Of a stretch of DNA of 64,000 nucleotides, positions 4,547 to 29,535 are shown piece after piece. The translations under genes and the position numbers were made by a program. Positions within the stretch are counted from its first letter, which is position 1; every line of letters begins with the position of its first letter. This DNA comes from an uncultured bacterium (GTDB lineage: Bacteria; Zixibacteria; MSB-5A5; CAIYYT01): positions 352,001 to 416,000 of the forward strand of contig CAVSCK010000004.1 of the NCBI GenBank assembly GCA_963726455.1. Reading direction: 5' to 3'. The notes under the pieces were generated by a model. The model saw nothing but the letters and a program-made list of their open reading frames with translations, had not been told where the DNA came from and made no database searches.

Positions 4547-6754
4547 ATGTCACAACGTTACAGCATTTTCCTTTTGCTGGTTTTCGCAGTTTGCCTGTTC
4601 GGCACCGCCGGGGCGACCGCGAAGTACTCTACTGTTCAAATCACACTGGATACCAAAGCCGACTACGAAAAAGTTCGCGCCTTCGGGTTCGAGCATGTCA
4701 TAGTCCGCGATGGATCTGCCGAAGCTGTTGTTTCGCAGAGCGATTTGCTGCGGCTCCAGGCGACCGGCCTGAAGTACACCGTCTCCATCGACGACATGAC
4801 CGCCTTCTATCAGAGCCGGTTCGACGCCACTCGAACGATGGGTGGCTATCGCACTCTCAGCGAAATCGGATTAGTGCTCGATTCCATTTCCAATGCTTAC
4901 CCTGGAATCGTCACGCCCAAGGCCAGCATGGGCAACTCTCTCGAAGGGCGCCCTATCTGGTTTGTGAAGATTTCCGATAACCCGAGCGTTAATGAGAACG
5001 AACCTGAAGTCTATTACTATGCCTGCCATCACGCGCGTGAGGTCATCACTCCGGAAGTGCTGATCTATTTCATGCGCTACTTGACGAGCAATTATGGCAC
5101 CAACCCGCAGGTGACATATCTGGTAAACAATCGTGAGTTATTTTTCGCGCCCTGTCTGAATCCCGATGGCTACTACTACAACCAGGAGACCGATCCGGGT
5201 GGCGGCGGCATGTGGCGCAAGAATCGGCGCAACAGTGGCGACGGCAATTTCGGTGTCGATATTAACCGCAATTACGGCTATCAGTGGGGATACGATGACA
5301 TTGGTTCCTCTCCCAGTACGGGAAGTGAAACTTATCGAGGCACGGCGCCCTTTTCGGAGCCGGAGATTGCGGCGCAACGGACGTTCATCAACGCGCATCA
5401 ATTCAAAGTCATCGTCAACTATCATTCCTACGCCGGTTTGTTCCTGTATCCGTGGGGATATGACAATATCTTCGCGCCGGATGATGATATCTTCAGACAA
5501 ATGGGCGACACTGTCAACGCAATGACCGGCTACGAGGCGGGACCGCCGTGGCAAGTATTGTATTCGGTCAACGGTGGAAGTTTTGACTGGGAATACGGCG
5601 AGCAAATTTCAAAGCCGAAAATCTACGCTATCAGTGTGGAAGTCGGTGACGGCGCGGACGGTTTCTGGCCGCCGACCAGCCGCATCGCGCCACTGGTTCA
5701 ATTGCACTTGCAGCCGAATCTTTTCTATGCGCGCATGGCCGGTAACCCCGAAGCGCTGCGGCCACCTGCAATGCCGACGATCTACGCAATCGGCAATGTC
5801 GACACGACCTATTTCCAACTCTATTGGCATCACTATGATCAGGCGAATCCGGCCCTTAGTTTCGAGGTCTGGCAGATGAGCAATCTGGCAAGCATCACGG
5901 ACAATCTGGAAGGTACTGGACCGACCTGGAATTCGAACGGATTCACGCTGACGACGTCTCAGGCGCATTCGGCCACCCACTCCTATTTTGGTGGCAACGT
6001 CAGCAATCTGAACACCACCCTGGCCATGGATCAGACGTTCACGGTTAGTCTTGGTGACACTCTCCAATTCTGGACATCCTATAATCATGAGTCCGGCTAT
6101 GACTACGGCTATGTAGAAGCATCGACCAACGGCGGCTCGACCTGGTCATCAATTCCCGGAAACATTACCACGACGGCTAATCCTCACGGCTACAACCAGG
6201 GCTTCGGGATTAACGGCAATTCCTCTGGATGGGTGCTTGCCAAGTTTCCGTTAAGTCTCTTCGCCGGCAGCAGCATCTTGCTCCGGTTCCATTATACGTC
6301 CGACGGCGGTGTCAATAACGGCGGTTGGTACATCGACGATATCTATCCTGTCGAATACTACACCACGATGACTAAATTATCCGATACAGTGGAAGATACT
6401 ACGCTACTGGTTCAAAACCTGCAAAACGGAGATTACTATTACAAGCTGCGCGCAAAGGATCCGCAAAATCAATTCTCGGGGTTTAGCCCGACGGAAGTTG
6501 CGCACGTGTCGTTCAGCACCTGCAGTTATTCGGTTGGAGATGCCGACAATTCGGGCAATTACGACATTTCCGATGCGGTCTACCTTATAGAGTATATCTT
6601 CAGCGGTGGTCCGGCGCCGTCGCCGAACGCAGTTGGATCGGGAGATGTGGATTGCTCAGGCGGCGTCGATATCAGCGATGCTGTCTATCTTATCGCTTAT
6701 ATCTTCGGCGGTGGACCCGCACCTGCGCCCACCTGTAATTGCCAGGACTATTGA
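4547..6754 (+). CDS. Secreted M14 zinc carboxypeptidase (carboxypeptidase T-like) with beta-sandwich domains and C-terminal dockerin
   Basis: Signal peptide; HHARE, WRKNRR, NRNY, HSY, VEVG motifs; duplicated [18 protein letters not shown] dockerin; SD AAGGAG. Confidence 0.9.
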   Translation: MSQRYSIFLLLVFAVCLFGTAGATAKYSTVQITLDTKADYEKVRAFGFEHVIVRDGSAEAVVSQSDLLRLQATGLKYTVSIDDMTAFYQSRFDATRTMGGYRTLSEIGLVLDSISNAYPGIVTPKASMGNSLEGRPIWFVKISDNPSVNENEPEVYYYACHHAREVITPEVLIYFMRYLTSNYGTNPQVTYLVNNRELFFAPCLNPDGYYYNQETDPGGGGMWRKNRRNSGDGNFGVDINRNYGYQWGYDDIGSSPSTGSETYRGTAPFSEPEIAAQRTFINAHQFKVIVNYHSYAGLFLYPWGYDNIFAPDDDIFRQMGDTVNAMTGYEAGPPWQVLYSVNGGSFDWEYGEQISKPKIYAISVEVGDGADGFWPPTSRIAPLVQLHLQPNLFYARMAGNPEALRPPAMPTIYAIGNVDTTYFQLYWHHYDQANPALSFEVWQMSNLASITDNLEGTGPTWNSNGFTLTTSQAHSATHSYFGGNVSNLNTTLAMDQTFTVSLGDTLQFWTSYNHESGYDYGYVEASTNGGSTWSSIPGNITTTANPHGYNQGFGINGNSSGWVLAKFPLSLFAGSSILLRFHYTSDGGVNNGGWYIDDIYPVEYYTTMTKLSDTVEDTTLLVQNLQNGDYYYKLRAKDPQNQFSGFSPTEVAHVSFSTCSYSVGDADNSGNYDISDAVYLIEYIFSGGPAPSPNAVGSGDVDCSGGVDISDAVYLIAYIFGGGPAPAPTCNCQDY

Positions 6755-6792
6755 TCAATCGGACTACAAATGTCCGTCGAGTGATTTCGATT

Positions 6793-6830
6793 AGGCGGGA
6801 GTCGCCAGGCAACTCTCGCCTGTCTTTTTT
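6793..6830 (+). terminator. Rho-independent terminator of the M14 peptidase gene
   Basis: AGGCGGGAGT/ACTCTCGCCT stem (G-U on + strand) followed by a T-run. Confidence 0.8.
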
Positions 6831-6837
6831 GTCCCCC

Positions 6838-6875
6838 AAAAAAAGTTTGGCAGAAGCGTCAATCGCCTCTGCCAA
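6838..6875 (-). terminator. Rho-independent terminator on the minus strand
   Basis: Minus strand UUGGCAGAGGCG-AUUGA-CGCUUCUGCCAA 12-bp stem (one G-U, an A-C mismatch on +) then AC and U7. Confidence 0.8.
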
Positions 6876-6911
6876 GTGGATAATTAGGTAAGACACTACT
6901 GGCCAAGATAC
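6838..6911 (-). ncRNA. Candidate sigma54-dependent small RNA (~74 nt)
   Basis: Bounded by a -24/-12 promoter (6922-6937) and a strand-specific terminator; no AUG or SD inside. Confidence 0.55.
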
Positions 6912-6921
6912 TTTATCAGGA

Positions 6922-6937
6922 AGCAAAAACCCTGCCA
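6922..6937 (-). promoter_or_regulatory. sigma54 (RpoN) -24/-12 promoter
   Basis: Minus strand TGGCAGGGTTTTTGCT = GG-N10-GC, close to TGGCAC-N5-TTGCW. Confidence 0.7.
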
Positions 6938-7054
6938 CTGACTAGCCGGCGTAAGTCGTTGTCATACAAGACGCGACAATGATCGATTGCGGCGCGGTCA
7001 GATCGGCGTGTACGAGATTTCGACAGTGAGACAGATGCTTCCCCAGCCGTTTTC

Positions 7055-7067
7055 TATCAAGTCATTG
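7055..7067 (+). promoter_or_regulatory. IHF-type binding site
   Basis: TATCAAGTCATTG matches WATCAANNNNTTR exactly; a weaker site (minus TGACAACGACTTA) lies at 6952-6964. Confidence 0.5.
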
Positions 7068-7214
7068 AATATGAGAATGTTACCAGTTAACAAAATTTGG
7101 TGGGTTTTCAGAACACCCTCCAGTTCATTCAGATACGGCACCTGACTTCCGGATTGGGCAAGCTTTGTGTCGAAAGCGATTTTCAACCGCATGAAAAACA
7201 GTTAACATTATTAG

Positions 7215-8417
7215 ATGGAGCCTGAACTTCAATTGGAGAAGATCTATTCTGTCTCTGAGATAACCGCCGAGATAAAGAATCTGCTGGAATCGGAGTTTCA
7301 GTCGGTCTGGGTGGAAGGCGAAATCTCCAACTATCTGCATCATACTTCCGGTCACCGCTATTTCACGTTGAAGGATGCGTCTGCGCAAATCAAGGCCGTG
7401 ATCTGGCGCTTCACGGCACAAGGACTGCAATTCGAACCGAAAGACGGCCTCAAAGTACGCGTGTTTGGTGACGTCACACTTTACGAGAAAGGTGGCAACT
7501 ACCAACTCCGTGTATCACGAATTCTGCCGCTCGGCAAAGGAAGTCTGGAAGAGCAATTCCAGAAGCTCAAAGAGAAGCTTTTACAGGAAGGTTTGTTCGC
7601 TGAAGAACGCAAGCGTCCGATACCGGAGTATCCGCGCGCGATAGGGGTTGTATCCTCACCGACCGGAGCCGCGATCAGGGACATAATCAATATCTGCACC
7701 CGGCGCGCTCCTCAGGTGCGGCTGGTGTTGAGGCCGACGCGCGTGCAAGGGGACGGCGCCGCCGAGGACATTGTCAAAGCGATTCAGGAATTCAACGCCT
7801 GGGGGCAGGTGGATGTTCTGATCGTCGGACGTGGCGGCGGCTCGCTGGAAGATTTATGGGCATTCAATGAAGAGATCGTCGCGCGCGCAATATTCGCATC
7901 GGAAATACCAGTCATCTCGGCAGTCGGGCACGAAATCGATTTTTCGATATCAGACTTCGTTGCCGATCTGCGTGCCGCAACACCATCAGCAGCCGCCGAA
8001 ATCGCAACCTATGATGCTCAGAGCATCACTGCTTTCGTGACGGAATCGCGCGCGCGTTTGGGCCGAGCTCTAATTCGCACGGTCGGAATGCGCCGCCAAT
8101 TATTGGAGCAACTGGTCAAGTCGCGCATATTTGTCTCGCCGCAGGTGCTTCTGGAGAAACCCTCACAGCGCTTGGATGATTGCGTGACCCGAATTAGGAA
8201 TAGCTCCGAACTGCTACTTCTGAAGAATCAGAACCGGTTGACGCTTGCAAATCACAAGCTGGCCGCACTTTCACCTGACAGTGTGCTTAAGCGGGGATAT
8301 GCGGTGATCACGCGTCGGCCCGATCAGACAATTGTCAAACAGGCCGCTGAATTGAGCGGTGGGGATGCAGTTGCTATCAAGTTCTCGGATGGCTCCAAGC
8401 CGGCGAAAATCGAGTAG
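7215..8417 (+). CDS. xseA: Exodeoxyribonuclease VII large subunit
   Basis: VWVEGEISN, SGHRYFTLKD, GRGGGSLEDLWAFNEE, AVGHEID, TPSAAAE. Confidence 0.97.
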   Translation: MEPELQLEKIYSVSEITAEIKNLLESEFQSVWVEGEISNYLHHTSGHRYFTLKDASAQIKAVIWRFTAQGLQFEPKDGLKVRVFGDVTLYEKGGNYQLRVSRILPLGKGSLEEQFQKLKEKLLQEGLFAEERKRPIPEYPRAIGVVSSPTGAAIRDIINICTRRAPQVRLVLRPTRVQGDGAAEDIVKAIQEFNAWGQVDVLIVGRGGGSLEDLWAFNEEIVARAIFASEIPVISAVGHEIDFSISDFVADLRAATPSAAAEIATYDAQSITAFVTESRARLGRALIRTVGMRRQLLEQLVKSRIFVSPQVLLEKPSQRLDDCVTRIRNSSELLLLKNQNRLTLANHKLAALSPDSVLKRGYAVITRRPDQTIVKQAAELSGGDAVAIKFSDGSKPAKIE

Positions 8418-8499: not shown

Positions 8500-8736
8500 T
8501 TGCCCGAAAAACAAGATACTTTCGAAAAGAACCTCAAGCAGCTTGAGGAAGTGGTAGCCAAACTGGAACAGGGAGATCTGCCACTGGATGAGGCCTTGAA
8601 GCTCTTTCAAGAGGGCATGCGGCTGTCGAAACTTTGTTCCGAAAAGCTTTCGACCGTGGAGCAGGAAATCAAGAAACTCGTGGCCGAGGGTGAGAAGTTC
8701 AAGCTGGAAACATTCGAGCACGATACCAATGCCTGA
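8500..8736 (+). CDS. xseB: Exodeoxyribonuclease VII small subunit
   Basis: [26 protein letters not shown]; TTG 8500 follows GAGGT SD. Confidence 0.95.
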
Positions 8737-9604
8737 ATTTGCCGGAAAAACACTCGCTGCCTTTGCACGTTTGCGCGAGCAGATTGATGCTGCCATTGAC
8801 ACTGTTCTCCCGCCTGCCGATCTGGAGCCGGTCGACCTGCATCAGGCGATGCGCTACTCGGTGTTGGCCGGCGGCAAGCGAATCCGCCCAATTCTGGCAG
8901 TGTCCTCATATCATGCCGGCGGCGGCAACTCCGAAAGTATATACAGATATGCTTCTGCTCTCGAGTTGCTTCACACCTACTCGCTGATTCACGACGACCT
9001 TCCCTGCATGGATGACGATGACTTTCGGCGCGGCCAGCCAACGTTACATCGTAAGTTCCCTGAATACATTGCCGTCCTTGCCGGCGACGCGTTGCATGCG
9101 CTCGCATTTGAAATACTGGCTGAGTCAGGCAATTGCGAAGTAGTGAGCCAGGTGGGTAAGGCAATCGGTACTGTGGGCATGATCGGCGGACAAGTCCGCG
9201 ATGTTCAGGCCGAAGGCCACGAAGTAACACTTGCCGATGTGGAGAATATTCACAAGCGAAAGACAGCCGCGTTGATCACGGCCTCAATTACCATGGGCGC
9301 ACTGTTGGCCAGAGCGCCGCGCAATGAAGTAAAGATGCTGGAAATATTCGGCGAGAAGCTGGGGCTGGCATTCCAGATAGTTGACGATATCTTGGACGTC
9401 GAAGGTGATTTCGAAAGTCTCGGCAAGTCCGTGGGATCTGATGACCGGCTGGCCAAAGCGACCTATCCCAAAGTCGTCGGCCTGGAGGCCTCGCGAAAGA
9501 TCGCCACGAACTTGATTGCCGAGGCCAAGGCAGCTCTGGAACATTACCCCGGCCGCGAAGTTTTCTGGCATTTAGCGGATTATATACTGGCGCGCGAAAC
9601 TTAA
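8729..9604 (+). CDS. ispA: Farnesyl/geranylgeranyl diphosphate synthase
   Basis: [34 protein letters not shown]; ATG overlaps the xseB end. Confidence 0.95.
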
Positions 9605-9639: not shown

Positions 9640-11604
9640 ATGACAGATTTCCTGCGCACAATTAAGTCTCCTGCCGACCTCAAGAAGGTCCCGCTCGAAT
9701 CGCTGCCCGAACTGGCGGCGGAGATTCGCGATGGTCTGGTGACGACCCTCTCCGAGTTGGGTGGACATCTGGGCGGCAATCTTGGCGTAGTCGAATTGAC
9801 AATCGCATTGCACTATGTATATGACAGTCCTGGCGACCAGATCGTCTGGGACACCGGCCACCAGTCTTATGTCCACAAGATGCTCACCGGCCGCTATGAC
9901 CGACTCAATACCATCCGTCAACTGGGTGGCTTGGCGGGATTTGCCAAAATCACCGAATCCGAGCATGATGTTTACGGCGCCGGCCATGCTTCGACGTCGA
10001 TTTCGGCCGCGTACGGCCTCGCCGTCGCCAGAGACCTGGCAGGCAAGGATAATCACGTTATTGCCGTGATTGGCGACGGCGCCATGACGGGCGGCCTTGC
10101 TTTTGAGGGACTGAATAATTTGGGCAATTCCAAGCGACGCATGTTAGTGGTACTTAATGACAATTCCATGTCCATTGATAAAAACGTCGGCGCACTGTCC
10201 GAGTACCTCACCGAACTGCGGACAGACGAGACCTATAACAAGATTAAGTCCTCGATTTGGGATTTGACCGGCAAGTTTAACCGTGGGCCGCTGATTCGGG
10301 AATTCGTCGGGAGAGTCGACGAAACCATCAAGAGCTTCCTGGTTCCCGGAGTGATTTTCGAGAAGCTCGGCCTGCGCTATTTTGGCCCCGTCGACGGCCA
10401 TGATGTAGTCGGCTTGGTCAAAACTCTTAACCACCTGAAGGCGCTGCCCGGACCTCTGTTGCTGCACATTCGCACGAAGAAGGGCAAGGGTTATCAACCT
10501 GCCGAGGACGATGCCTGCAATTTCCACGGTGTAAACAAATTCGATAAGGTTACCGGCAAGTCTGAAAACTCCAGTGGCATCTCGTATACGAAAGTCTTCG
10601 GCGACACCATGATCGAACTGGCACAGAAGGACCCGAATCTCGTTGTGATAACCGCCGCCATGCCGACCGGCACGGGCTTGTCCAAATATGCCAAGACCTA
10701 TCCCGATCGCTTCTTCGACGTCGGTATCGCCGAACTACACGCCGCGGTATTTGCGGCCGGGCTTTCGCGCGGCGGCAGTAAGCCGGTGTTTGCGGTCTAC
10801 TCAACATTCTGCCAGCGCGCCTACGATCCGATTATTCATGATATCGCCCTGCAAAATCTTCCCGTGATTCTGGCTCTTGATCGTGCCGGTTTGGTCGGCA
10901 ACGACGGACCAACTCACCACGGCACCTTTGATCTTTCCTACTTGCGTGTGGTTCCGAACATGACAATCTGCGCGCCGAAAGATGGCACCGAGTTGAAGCA
11001 ATTGTTGCAGTTGGCGCTGGAAAGATTCGATGGGCCGATCGCCATCCGTTGGCCGCGCGCCGATATTCCCGAGGGCAAGATTCAGGATCGTCCGTTGTTG
11101 GAATGGGGAACGTGGGAACCGCTACTTGAAGGTAAGGATGCGGTTATTCTGGCAGTCGGTACGATGGTCGGGCAATCCCTCAAGGCCGCCGCGCAATTGG
11201 CGGCAAAAGGCGTTCAGGTCACTGTGGTCAATTGCCGTTTTGTAAAGCCGTTCGATTATTCCATGCTGCAGGAACTTTCCGAACACTACAAGTACTTCAT
11301 CACTGTTGAAGAGGGTTCGCTGCCGGGAGGATTCGGCTCAGGCATAAATGACTGGCTGGTCGACTCGGGCAGAACACACGTTCGTTTGCAGCGGCTCGGC
11401 ATTCCCGATCAGTTTGTCGAACACGGCAGCCGCAGTGAATTGCTGGAAATGATCGGGTTGCACCCGGAGGGAATCGCCGGCGCCGTCGAAAATTTCGTTC
11501 GTGCCGAGGGTAAACATTCGCTTAAGATAAAGACGGACTCGGAGACAACTCCAACGGTTAATCGACTTGAAAATGTGAAGACCATCGCCAAGGACAATTC
11601 CTGA
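9640..11604 (+). CDS. dxs: 1-deoxy-D-xylulose-5-phosphate synthase
   Basis: GGHLG, GHQSYVHK, GDGAMTGG...NDN TPP motif, DRAGLVG.DGPTH. Confidence 0.98.
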   Translation: MTDFLRTIKSPADLKKVPLESLPELAAEIRDGLVTTLSELGGHLGGNLGVVELTIALHYVYDSPGDQIVWDTGHQSYVHKMLTGRYDRLNTIRQLGGLAGFAKITESEHDVYGAGHASTSISAAYGLAVARDLAGKDNHVIAVIGDGAMTGGLAFEGLNNLGNSKRRMLVVLNDNSMSIDKNVGALSEYLTELRTDETYNKIKSSIWDLTGKFNRGPLIREFVGRVDETIKSFLVPGVIFEKLGLRYFGPVDGHDVVGLVKTLNHLKALPGPLLLHIRTKKGKGYQPAEDDACNFHGVNKFDKVTGKSENSSGISYTKVFGDTMIELAQKDPNLVVITAAMPTGTGLSKYAKTYPDRFFDVGIAELHAAVFAAGLSRGGSKPVFAVYSTFCQRAYDPIIHDIALQNLPVILALDRAGLVGNDGPTHHGTFDLSYLRVVPNMTICAPKDGTELKQLLQLALERFDGPIAIRWPRADIPEGKIQDRPLLEWGTWEPLLEGKDAVILAVGTMVGQSLKAAAQLAAKGVQVTVVNCRFVKPFDYSMLQELSEHYKYFITVEEGSLPGGFGSGINDWLVDSGRTHVRLQRLGIPDQFVEHGSRSELLEMIGLHPEGIAGAVENFVRAEGKHSLKIKTDSETTPTVNRLENVKTIAKDNS

Positions 11605-29247: not shown

Positions 29248-29535
29248 ATGACAAAGGCAGATCTGGTCGAGAAAGTAGCCGAGCGCACCGGATTGACCCG
29301 CACTGATGTTGCAGTCGTGGTCGATTCGTTTCTCGACACTATCAAGAAATCGATGGAGGAGATGCAGAACATCGAAATCCGCGGTTTCGGCACTTTCAAG
29401 ATCAAACTCAGAAAAGCCCGCAAGGCGCGCAATCCGCGGACGGGCGACGAAGTGCCGGTTCCGGACCGCAAGGTCCCGGTATTCAAGCCGTCAAACGAAT
29501 TTAAGGATCTGATTACGAAACTGCCGTTGCAGTAA
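29248..29535 (+). CDS. HU/IHF family DNA-binding protein
   Basis: MTKADLV, IEIRGFGTF, ARNPRTG, PVFKPS. Confidence 0.95.
   Translation: MTKADLVEKVAERTGLTRTDVAVVVDSFLDTIKKSMEEMQNIEIRGFGTFKIKLRKARKARNPRTGDEVPVPDRKVPVFKPSNEFKDLITKLPLQ

Follow-up and report, generated by a model that had tools for sequence, protein, structure and literature searches.

Between the gene of an M14 carboxypeptidase and xseA, a 64,000-nt stretch of DNA from an uncultured member of the Zixibacteria (contig CAVSCK010000004.1; the whole stretch is called the window below) contains a small transcription unit on its minus strand, at positions 6838-6911. Our analyses support its assignment as a new, family-restricted sigma-54-dependent small RNA (sRNA) gene that has a conserved enhancer and belongs to no described RNA family. 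This agrees with the core of a preliminary description of the window, in which an unannotated sigma-54-dependent sRNA of no known family had been proposed: the -24/-12 element is conserved, the terminator stem covaries, the enhancer sits at a fixed distance, rpoN is present, and no Rfam family matches. All of the sequence features listed in that description were found again at their positions when the minus strand was re-read from 6600 to 7300. Sequence and comparison establish the unit itself, with its promoter, enhancer and terminator, as well as the presence of rpoN and of genes for PrsK and PrsR; they also show that no open reading frame (ORF) is conserved in the unit. The RNA is probably wired into a circuit that controls cell-surface (PEP-CTERM) proteins.

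The predicted RNA is ~72-74 nt long, with its 5' end at 6909-6911 and its 3' end in a U-run at 6838-6844. Its putative sigma-54 promoter, TGGCAG-N5-TTGCT (-24 GG/-12 GC; TGGCAGGGTTTTTGCT), lies at 6922-6937 on the minus strand and is kept in relatives. Every one of the 18 relatives for which upstream sequence is available keeps the GG-N10-GC arrangement (CGGCA replaces TGGCA in two), and 17 of 19 sequences place the first G of the -24 GG 27 nt before the A of an invariant block at the RNA 5' end, the other two having 26 and 28 nt. This block starts 12-14 nt past the GC, which fits the spacing expected of a sigma-54 start; the start at ~6911 predicted in the preliminary description is borne out to the extent that the -24/-12 spacing would place it at or just before the invariant block. 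It should be noted that the promoter motif alone lies within chance, TGGCA-N6-TTGC being found 75 times in the genome versus ~29 expected from base composition (our own arithmetic); the finding stands above chance because the whole unit is conserved from promoter to terminator in relatives.

The RNA itself consists of a free 5' half followed by a terminator. The 5' segment ATCTTGGCCAGTAGTGTC (6892-6909, minus strand), our proposed pairing seed, is identical at positions 2-18 in all 14 distinct sequences of the alignment and is predicted to be single-stranded, the minimum free energy (MFE) and consensus folds leaving it unpaired save for a weak 4-bp option that never varies. A variable segment separates this block from a short ATCCAC motif, which precedes the terminator. 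The latter is Rho-independent (6838-6875, minus strand), with a 12-bp stem at 6875-6847, of which seven pairs are G-C, a loop of 5 nt and a U7 run at 6844-6838 (tail ACTTTTTTTG in the terminator scan). As had been observed, the stem has one imperfect pair, which reads G-U on the minus strand (A-C if the plus strand were transcribed), and the terminator is distinct from that of the peptidase gene, which occupies 6806-6831 on the plus strand (6806-6822 in the terminator scan). The RNA has an MFE of -22.6 kcal/mol (z-score -3.75; 0 of 200 shuffles equally stable). The transcript has no ATG, as claimed, and no ORF is conserved in the unit among the 14 distinct sequences. One earlier suggestion, that a C/U-rich stretch could pair with ribosome-binding sites, did not find support, as this is where the RNA varies, and it is the 5' end that stays invariant.

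The conservation of the unit follows its predicted borders. When the 460-nt spacer was compared by BLAST with the genomes of 60 relatives (labelled G001 onward, the 3.64-Mb genome of the window being G000; extracted loci carry L-numbers), 19 of the 20 same-family genomes aligned within query positions 278-381 at E < 0.01. These correspond to window positions 6937-6834, i.e., exactly the segment from promoter to terminator. The sole further match at this threshold was 24 nt long, in G006 (E 0.0012, query 193-216), and overlaps the enhancer box. A covariance model built from the 14 distinct RNA sequences detected one full-length copy at E 1e-14 or better in each of 20 genomes among the 21 of the family. 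The genome of the window is one of the 20; there the unit is the single copy (G000:C4:358839-358909(-), 84.8 bits), and the remaining matches cover the terminator only. The one family genome without a BLAST or covariance-model match, G002, is an assembly in 720 contigs. Among 130 genomes of the class outside the family, the model found no verified copy, with ~10 weaker full-length matches of 20-23 bits left uninspected; a 34-bit match in G060 proved false, as it lacks a promoter and consists of a terminator together with the 3' end of a coding sequence. A scan of the region against Rfam returned one noise match (E 9.3, 10.8 bits versus a gathering threshold of 50) to an unrelated long non-coding RNA model, and none at the gathering threshold, in line with the claim that the RNA belongs to no known family.

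The terminator helix shows the same constraint at the level of structure. Its 10 consensus pairs include seven with compensatory changes, 99.3% of alignment cells are paired, and the covariation score is 0.600, versus 0.293 ± 0.035 for shuffles (0 of 500). The kinship of the relatives inflates the independence assumed in shuffle counts; controls in which the helix was slid along the alignment are free of that weakness and gave 38-54% pairing and scores of at most 0.288. The compensatory changes point to selection on the structure of the RNA or of its terminator.

An exact scan of 185,579 species genomes with the 17-nt core yielded 36 loci, namely 17 real elements and 19 chance matches, the latter in unrelated coding DNA. 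All 17 real elements have an RNA sequence identical to those of the family loci, and we conclude from these genome comparisons that the RNA gene is restricted to one family of an uncultured lineage of the FCB group. In 17 of 17 loci the RNA gene and an xseA orthologue (59-76% amino-acid identity) are divergent, and the first 17 nt of the RNA are identical although the neighboring XseA protein has diverged by a quarter to 40%. The convergent gene downstream, available in 15 loci, encodes an M14 peptidase in 10 and a prepilin-peptidase-like protein in five; the RNA unit is therefore not tied to the peptidase. The check proposed in the preliminary description, a BLASTN comparison of relatives upstream of xseA, came out in its favor on all points, since the promoter, an invariant 5' end and a covarying stem are conserved. 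In the window, the flanking genes are those of the M14 carboxypeptidase, which has MAM-like and dockerin-like parts (4547-6754, plus strand), and xseA (7215-8417, plus strand; Pfam Exonuc_VII_L, 3.4e-94).

The machinery for such a promoter is encoded in the genome, as had been anticipated: rpoN is present (Sigma54_DBD, 197.3 bits in a 473-aa frame), and 20 Sigma54_activat matches at E 1e-38 or better correspond to ~20 enhancer-binding proteins. We found no Hfq gene in this genome, which is rated 100% complete.

The palindrome TGT-N11-ACA pointed out at 7025-7009 is present and is conserved at a fixed position. In the window it forms a 17-nt box (TGTCGAAATCTCGTACA; 7009-7025, minus strand), a putative enhancer (upstream activating sequence) and a candidate PrsR-type binding site. 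All 19 sequences have a 17-nt TGT-N11-ACA box, mostly TGTC-N9-GACA, at -115 to -120 relative to the RNA 5' end, with a spacer of 71-76 nt between box and GG. Searching this genome for the combination gave a short list: among 124 sites that match TGGC[AC]-N6-TTGC, three carry a strict box within 140 nt upstream, and these are the RNA gene and two genes for ~210-aa PEP-CTERM-domain proteins (promoters at G000:C2:~9,900-10,030 and C3:~699,270-699,390). The genome has 10 PEP-CTERM genes, eight of which are preceded by box-like 17-mers, usually two ~100 nt apart; five of these eight also show a recognizable -24/-12 motif 100-210 nt downstream of the box. A matrix derived from the boxes of the RNA genes placed at least eight of its 45 best genome-wide matches upstream of four PEP-CTERM genes (six distinct sites, as palindromes score on both strands), in upstream regions that make up ~0.1% of the genome. 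In the 21 genomes of the family, a composite search (box, 65-90 nt, promoter) gave 29 matches, versus 0 for a reversed control: 10 matches are the RNA gene, four are PEP-CTERM genes in loci of relatives, 10 are a second non-coding unit described below, four fall apparently inside coding sequence, and one lies in a short contig and was unassigned. Of note, a pair of TGTC-N9-GACA boxes upstream of the -24/-12 motif is typical of the PEP-CTERM promoters (G000:C2:~9,810-10,035 and C3:~699,170-699,395).

A regulator suited to this box is present. PrsR (TIGR02915) passes its cut-off once in the genome (556.8-557.1 bits versus 502.6), and PrsK (TIGR02916) does so with 303.9 bits versus 300; prsK adjoins prsR, downstream of exopolysaccharide (EPS) genes. 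PrsR is above cut-off in 19 of 21 family genomes, and the two others are 89% complete. In the passages of Haft et al. (2006, PMC1569441) that define it, the PEP-CTERM box is a 17-nt motif ending in TTTACA and followed, after a spacer of 62.8 ± 10.6 nt, by a sigma-54 motif, and is reported only in Proteobacteria. The box and spacer found here (17 nt and 71-76 nt) agree with this description, the TTTACA end being matched only partially: the window box ends in GTACA, and some relatives have TTTACA or CTTACA. Elsewhere, the sections of two further papers that deal with such genes describe RpoN dependence of a PEP-CTERM gene in Aquincola (PMC9850573) and, in Desulfovibrio vulgaris, enrichment of predicted PEP-CTERM targets of the predicted regulator DVUA0057 in an array-based DNA-affinity assay (DAP-chip; PMC3333781). 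As this box also stands before sigma-54 promoters of PEP-CTERM genes, we regard PrsR as the probable activator of the RNA gene, an assignment that, on these sequence patterns, we favor somewhat over its negation.

Taken as a whole, we consider the following explanation fairly probable. Sigma-54 RNA polymerase would bind the -24/-12 element at 6937-6922, and an NtrC-type response regulator, most likely PrsR, would activate it from the 17-nt box that lies ~72 nt further upstream (7025-7009). Transcription would begin at ~6909-6911 and stop at the hairpin and U7. The RNA would then act in trans without Hfq, its invariant 5' end pairing with mRNAs; pairing RNAs usually have this architecture, in which an unstructured, invariant 5' end precedes a terminator. 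The best candidate targets would represent feedback on the RNA's own circuit: in the sister genus, the leader of the EPS/prsK/prsR cluster, and here, that of rpoN. We infer transcription, activation by PrsR, base pairing, the targets and the direction of their effect from the genomic evidence set out above and below.

The candidate target in the sister genus was found in the leader of a PorV/Q-like gene that heads the EPS/prsK/prsR cluster. It emerged as a wobble-tolerant seed match outside coding sequence. Of 13 sister-genus genomes, 12 share the core CTGGCCAAGAA at one leader position, in the first stem-loop of a non-coding leader of ~430-480 nt, ~8 kb from prsR and downstream of a sigma-70-like TTGAC[AG]-N17-TACTAT element. 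The hairpin exposes the loop GCCAAGAA on a stem with one compensatory change, and the complement to the RNA in this loop is 17-19 nt long. Duplexes of each leader with the genome's own RNA were predicted at -22 to -31 kcal/mol, a stability reached by none of 100 shuffles. A second, sigma-54-like motif was seen ~70 nt before the start codon of the PorV/Q-like gene (L183, L185-L187 and L192-L205 in the sister genus; L172 15726-16300 here).

For the genome of the window, the strongest candidate within the circuit is rpoN. The first 30 nt of the RNA can pair over 27 bp with positions -34 to -2 relative to the rpoN start codon, and the gene ranks 7 of 3,284 (-29.0 kcal/mol versus a mean of -17.2, standard deviation 3.5) in a comparison where other genes were allowed alternative starts. 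The pairing is also strong in G006 (0 of 200 shuffles) and moderate in G004 (seed only), G010, G012 and G013 (5-6% of shuffles). The lptB-rpoN spacer (G000:C5:~498777-498810(-); loci L091-L111) carries a family-wide motif, GCCGATAAT, followed by TAAC...TTAC.GG.CAA..AGATA before the ATG; this motif is strongly complementary to the sRNA in this genome and in G006, and in most others it is not. That both candidates fall in the sigma-54/PrsR circuit would be unlikely for a random site and is a hint of feedback.

Several results weigh against these targets, and we hold the target part of the explanation to be tentative, with doubt outweighing confidence. The operon-leader site is absent or non-significant in this genome (z-score -0.18), G001 (17 of 100 shuffles), G005 (91 of 100) and G014 (75 of 100), and G003 and G009 have weaker leader sites at other positions (2 of 100 and 7 of 100). 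The rpoN pairing is at shuffle level in 14 of 20 genomes, including both other RNA-carrying members of this genus. No enrichment for pairing was seen in the start regions of prsR, xseA or the PEP-CTERM genes. Across the 21 genomes, near-perfect seed complements show no excess (41 versus 33 for the reversed control), and wobble-tolerant 17-mer matches (44 versus 15) lie mostly over Ala-Leu-Leu-Ala/Val codons in coding sequence. The target scans are noisy because the seed contains GGCCAG, the complement of common Leu-Ala codons; the start-region background obtained with a 21-nt seed is dominated by CTGGCC. The scans also relied on crude ORF calls for gene starts and on mononucleotide shuffles, both candidates were found post hoc, and kin genomes are not independent.

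Other matches of the scans were set aside or are recorded for completeness. The best non-self match of a genome-wide k-mer-seeded duplex scan (-38.4 kcal/mol at C4:1647881) is antisense to a coding gene and was discarded. A perfect 16-nt seed complement (L154 1501-1516, G014:C9) lies inside a lysyl-tRNA-synthetase-like coding sequence, over VTLLAKS codons, and was judged a chance match helped by codon usage; near-matches of this kind recur in other genomes. An NtrC-type activator gene (G000:C3:400323-401678, plus strand) has a 21-nt seed match over codons 2-10 that ranks 4 of 3,285; it falls in the common RILLADD receiver motif, so that codon usage may account for it. Downstream of xseA, the polyprenyl synthetase gene (window 8690-9604, plus strand) ranks 9 of 3,284 in its start region, with the first 36 nt of the RNA at -28.9 kcal/mol.

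The identity of the activator is where a competing explanation carries most weight. TGT-N-ACA palindromes are common to several NtrC-type regulators, and the unit could be sigma-54-dependent and yet driven by another member of this family, either the second NtrC-like activator gene that lies directly downstream of prsR (L172 5351-6811; NtrC model 441.7 bits, below cut-off), whose product could bind the box instead, or a co-controlling regulator; the genome encodes ~20 enhancer-binding proteins. The RNA gene and the PEP-CTERM genes are not alike in where their boxes lie or in how many they have: the former has a single box that stands 13-15 nt nearer to the promoter than at the two strict PEP-CTERM promoters, where boxes usually come as two ~100 nt apart. 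PrsR also occurs in families without the RNA, being above cut-off in 53 of 151 class genomes, and the likeness of the box to the published PEP-CTERM motif was judged by text description and not by logo. All of these points count against PrsR. On the other side, a search of this genome for the strict box combined with the promoter singles out nothing besides the RNA gene and PEP-CTERM genes, and PrsR belongs to the family curated as the PEP-CTERM-box regulator, with a motif length of 17 nt and a spacing that fit the published description. We therefore retain PrsR as the preferred activator and regard control by a different one as unlikely, though by a distance that leaves it a serious contender.

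Three further explanations concern the product rather than the promoter. The RNA could bind or titrate a protein through its invariant 5' segment, in the manner of GlmY or CsrB, with no mRNA pairing. The lack of a target conserved across the whole family and of a detected Hfq gene would suit this model, and the full invariance of 17 nt across genera exceeds the need of many pairing seeds; however, the invariant segment has no repeated protein-binding motif, is predicted to be single-stranded and 5'-terminal, as pairing seeds usually are, and finds its 17-19-nt complement in a leader loop of 12 of 13 sister-genus genomes and a 27-bp complement at the rpoN start here, so that protein titration appears improbable. 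It is very improbable that the conserved block is instead an element acting at the DNA level, or that its hairpin ends a longer upstream transcript with no separate sRNA: a 64-aa ATG ORF does lie upstream on the same strand (7192-6998), but its region is unconserved and without a Pfam match, conservation begins exactly at the promoter, the stem has compensatory changes, and the unit stays constant while the downstream gene varies. This ORF, which lies between xseA and the RNA gene (6998-7192, minus strand), is probably no gene, and neither it nor an 82-aa ORF in the spacer matched Pfam or is conserved in sequence among the relatives. Slightly less credible still is a very small protein read from a TTG at nt 4 (MASSVLPNYPL...). 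An 11-residue N-terminal stretch is indeed identical in 7 of the 14 distinct sequences, but the TTG frame stops after seven codons in two sequences, has no stop before the end in five of 14, and is shifted by a 1-nt insertion in the nine loci sharing the L015 RNA sequence, which keep the ATCCAC nucleotide motif. Moreover, there is no Shine-Dalgarno sequence, the leader would be only 3 nt long, the first six codons show no synonymous changes, and Pfam finds nothing in the overlapping longer ORFs. As the frame is not maintained across the 14 distinct sequences, we rejected the small-protein explanation. A pairing sRNA therefore remains our preferred reading of the product.

The composite search also uncovered a second conserved non-coding unit. 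It is ~75 nt long and comprises a CCTGGCGACAGG hairpin, a conserved CTATTTCCCATCA stretch and a terminator, and in 10 sister-genus genomes (L119-L122, L124-L128 and L132) it appears to be driven by the same pattern of box and sigma-54 promoter. A homologue is present in the genome of the window (G000:C5:259894-259954(-), nhmmer E 2.6e-8), preceded by AGGCACGAAATTTGCA with GG-N10-GC spacing at ~C5:260080; no box above 8 bits was found in the 200 nt upstream of this promoter-like site. Rfam gave no match for the second unit. These data support the view that promoters combining the box and a sigma-54 motif would drive sRNAs in this family. It is conceivable, although we think it somewhat unlikely, that the two RNAs form the non-coding arm of a PrsK/PrsR exosortase/PEP-CTERM program, providing Hfq-independent feedback by pairing with the leader of the operon of their own activator (sister genus) or with the start region of rpoN (this genome); the partners would have been rewired between genera and the seed would have remained invariant.

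To our knowledge, sigma-54-dependent sRNAs are known from a handful of Proteobacteria. The Qrr RNAs of Vibrio are short sigma-54 RNAs activated by the NtrC-type LuxO; they consist of a single-stranded pairing region followed by a terminator and feed back on the mRNA of their own activator. The RNA described here would resemble them in its size, its sigma-54 promoter and its conserved single-stranded 5' region followed by a terminator; it differs in having no Rfam match, a single copy per genome, no Hfq gene found, and another enhancer box and circuit. GlmY and GlmZ of Enterobacteriaceae also have sigma-54 promoters, at which GlrR/QseF binds TGTC-N10-GACA boxes with the assistance of integration host factor (IHF), and GlmY sequesters a protein. 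The TGTC-N9-GACA box and -24/-12 layout found here closely resemble theirs, whereas the GlmY and GlmZ RNAs are much longer and differently folded; the box here has N9 and is common to PEP-CTERM genes, and the RNA has no Rfam match.

Closer still in layout are the PEP-CTERM-box promoters attributed to PrsK/PrsR, which, as far as their description in PMC1569441 goes, share the 17-nt box, the spacer and the sigma-54 motif, with both PrsK and PrsR present here. Unlike our unit, which is non-coding and belongs to an FCB-group lineage, the promoters covered by that description drive protein genes and come from Proteobacteria only. In D. vulgaris, Dv_sRNA2 is a target of the sigma-54 response regulator DVU0679, which has a validated binding motif, and this is the sole control of that sRNA given in the relevant passages (PMC3333781). 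The RNA reported here would likewise be an sRNA under NtrC-type sigma-54 control, which in our case is predicted; the lineage and regulator are different, and the Dv_sRNA2 gene adjoins that of its regulator, a comparison that extends to the description in that paper only (PMC3333781). Our literature searches on sRNAs and RpoN in Zixibacteria, and on sRNAs in relation to PEP-CTERM, exosortase or PrsR, found no description of such an RNA at the level of bibliographic entries, without supplements.

This RNA would add a comparatively well-defined sigma-54 sRNA from an uncultured FCB-group lineage that has no detected Hfq gene and in which RNA regulation is almost unexplored. The PEP-CTERM/exosortase system has been linked to the formation of flocs and biofilms, and little is understood of its signal or its circuitry. 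If the link to PrsR is true, the RNA would be the first RNA regulator of this system, in a lineage without a cultured member, and would represent a compact module of 190 bp with one box, one promoter and one seed. An invariant seed whose partners differ between genera within one circuit would, if true, also be a useful case for studying the rewiring of sRNA networks.

Between enhancer and promoter, a TTGT-N5-ACAA block (6959-6969, minus strand) is partly conserved, in most but not all aligned relatives. It overlaps the first of the IHF-like sites proposed in the preliminary description (6952-6964) and may be a DNA-bending site (IHF/HU type) or the site of a second regulator. The sequences named as IHF sites are present, and the first coincides in part with this partly conserved block; their assignment to IHF is unsupported, as neither of the two HU/IHF-family genes of the genome reaches the IHF-alpha cut-off. 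Farther upstream, the exact IHF consensus (7055-7067) and the TGTTA-N5-TAACA palindrome (7078-7092) also exist in the window and have no recognizable conservation in relatives. A bending protein is plausible. One of the two HU/IHF-family genes lies in the window at 29248-29514 on the plus strand (G000:C4:381248-381514; 75.6 bits versus an IHF-alpha cut-off of 120.25), and its first codons are among the better seed matches of the RNA, at -23.4 kcal/mol.

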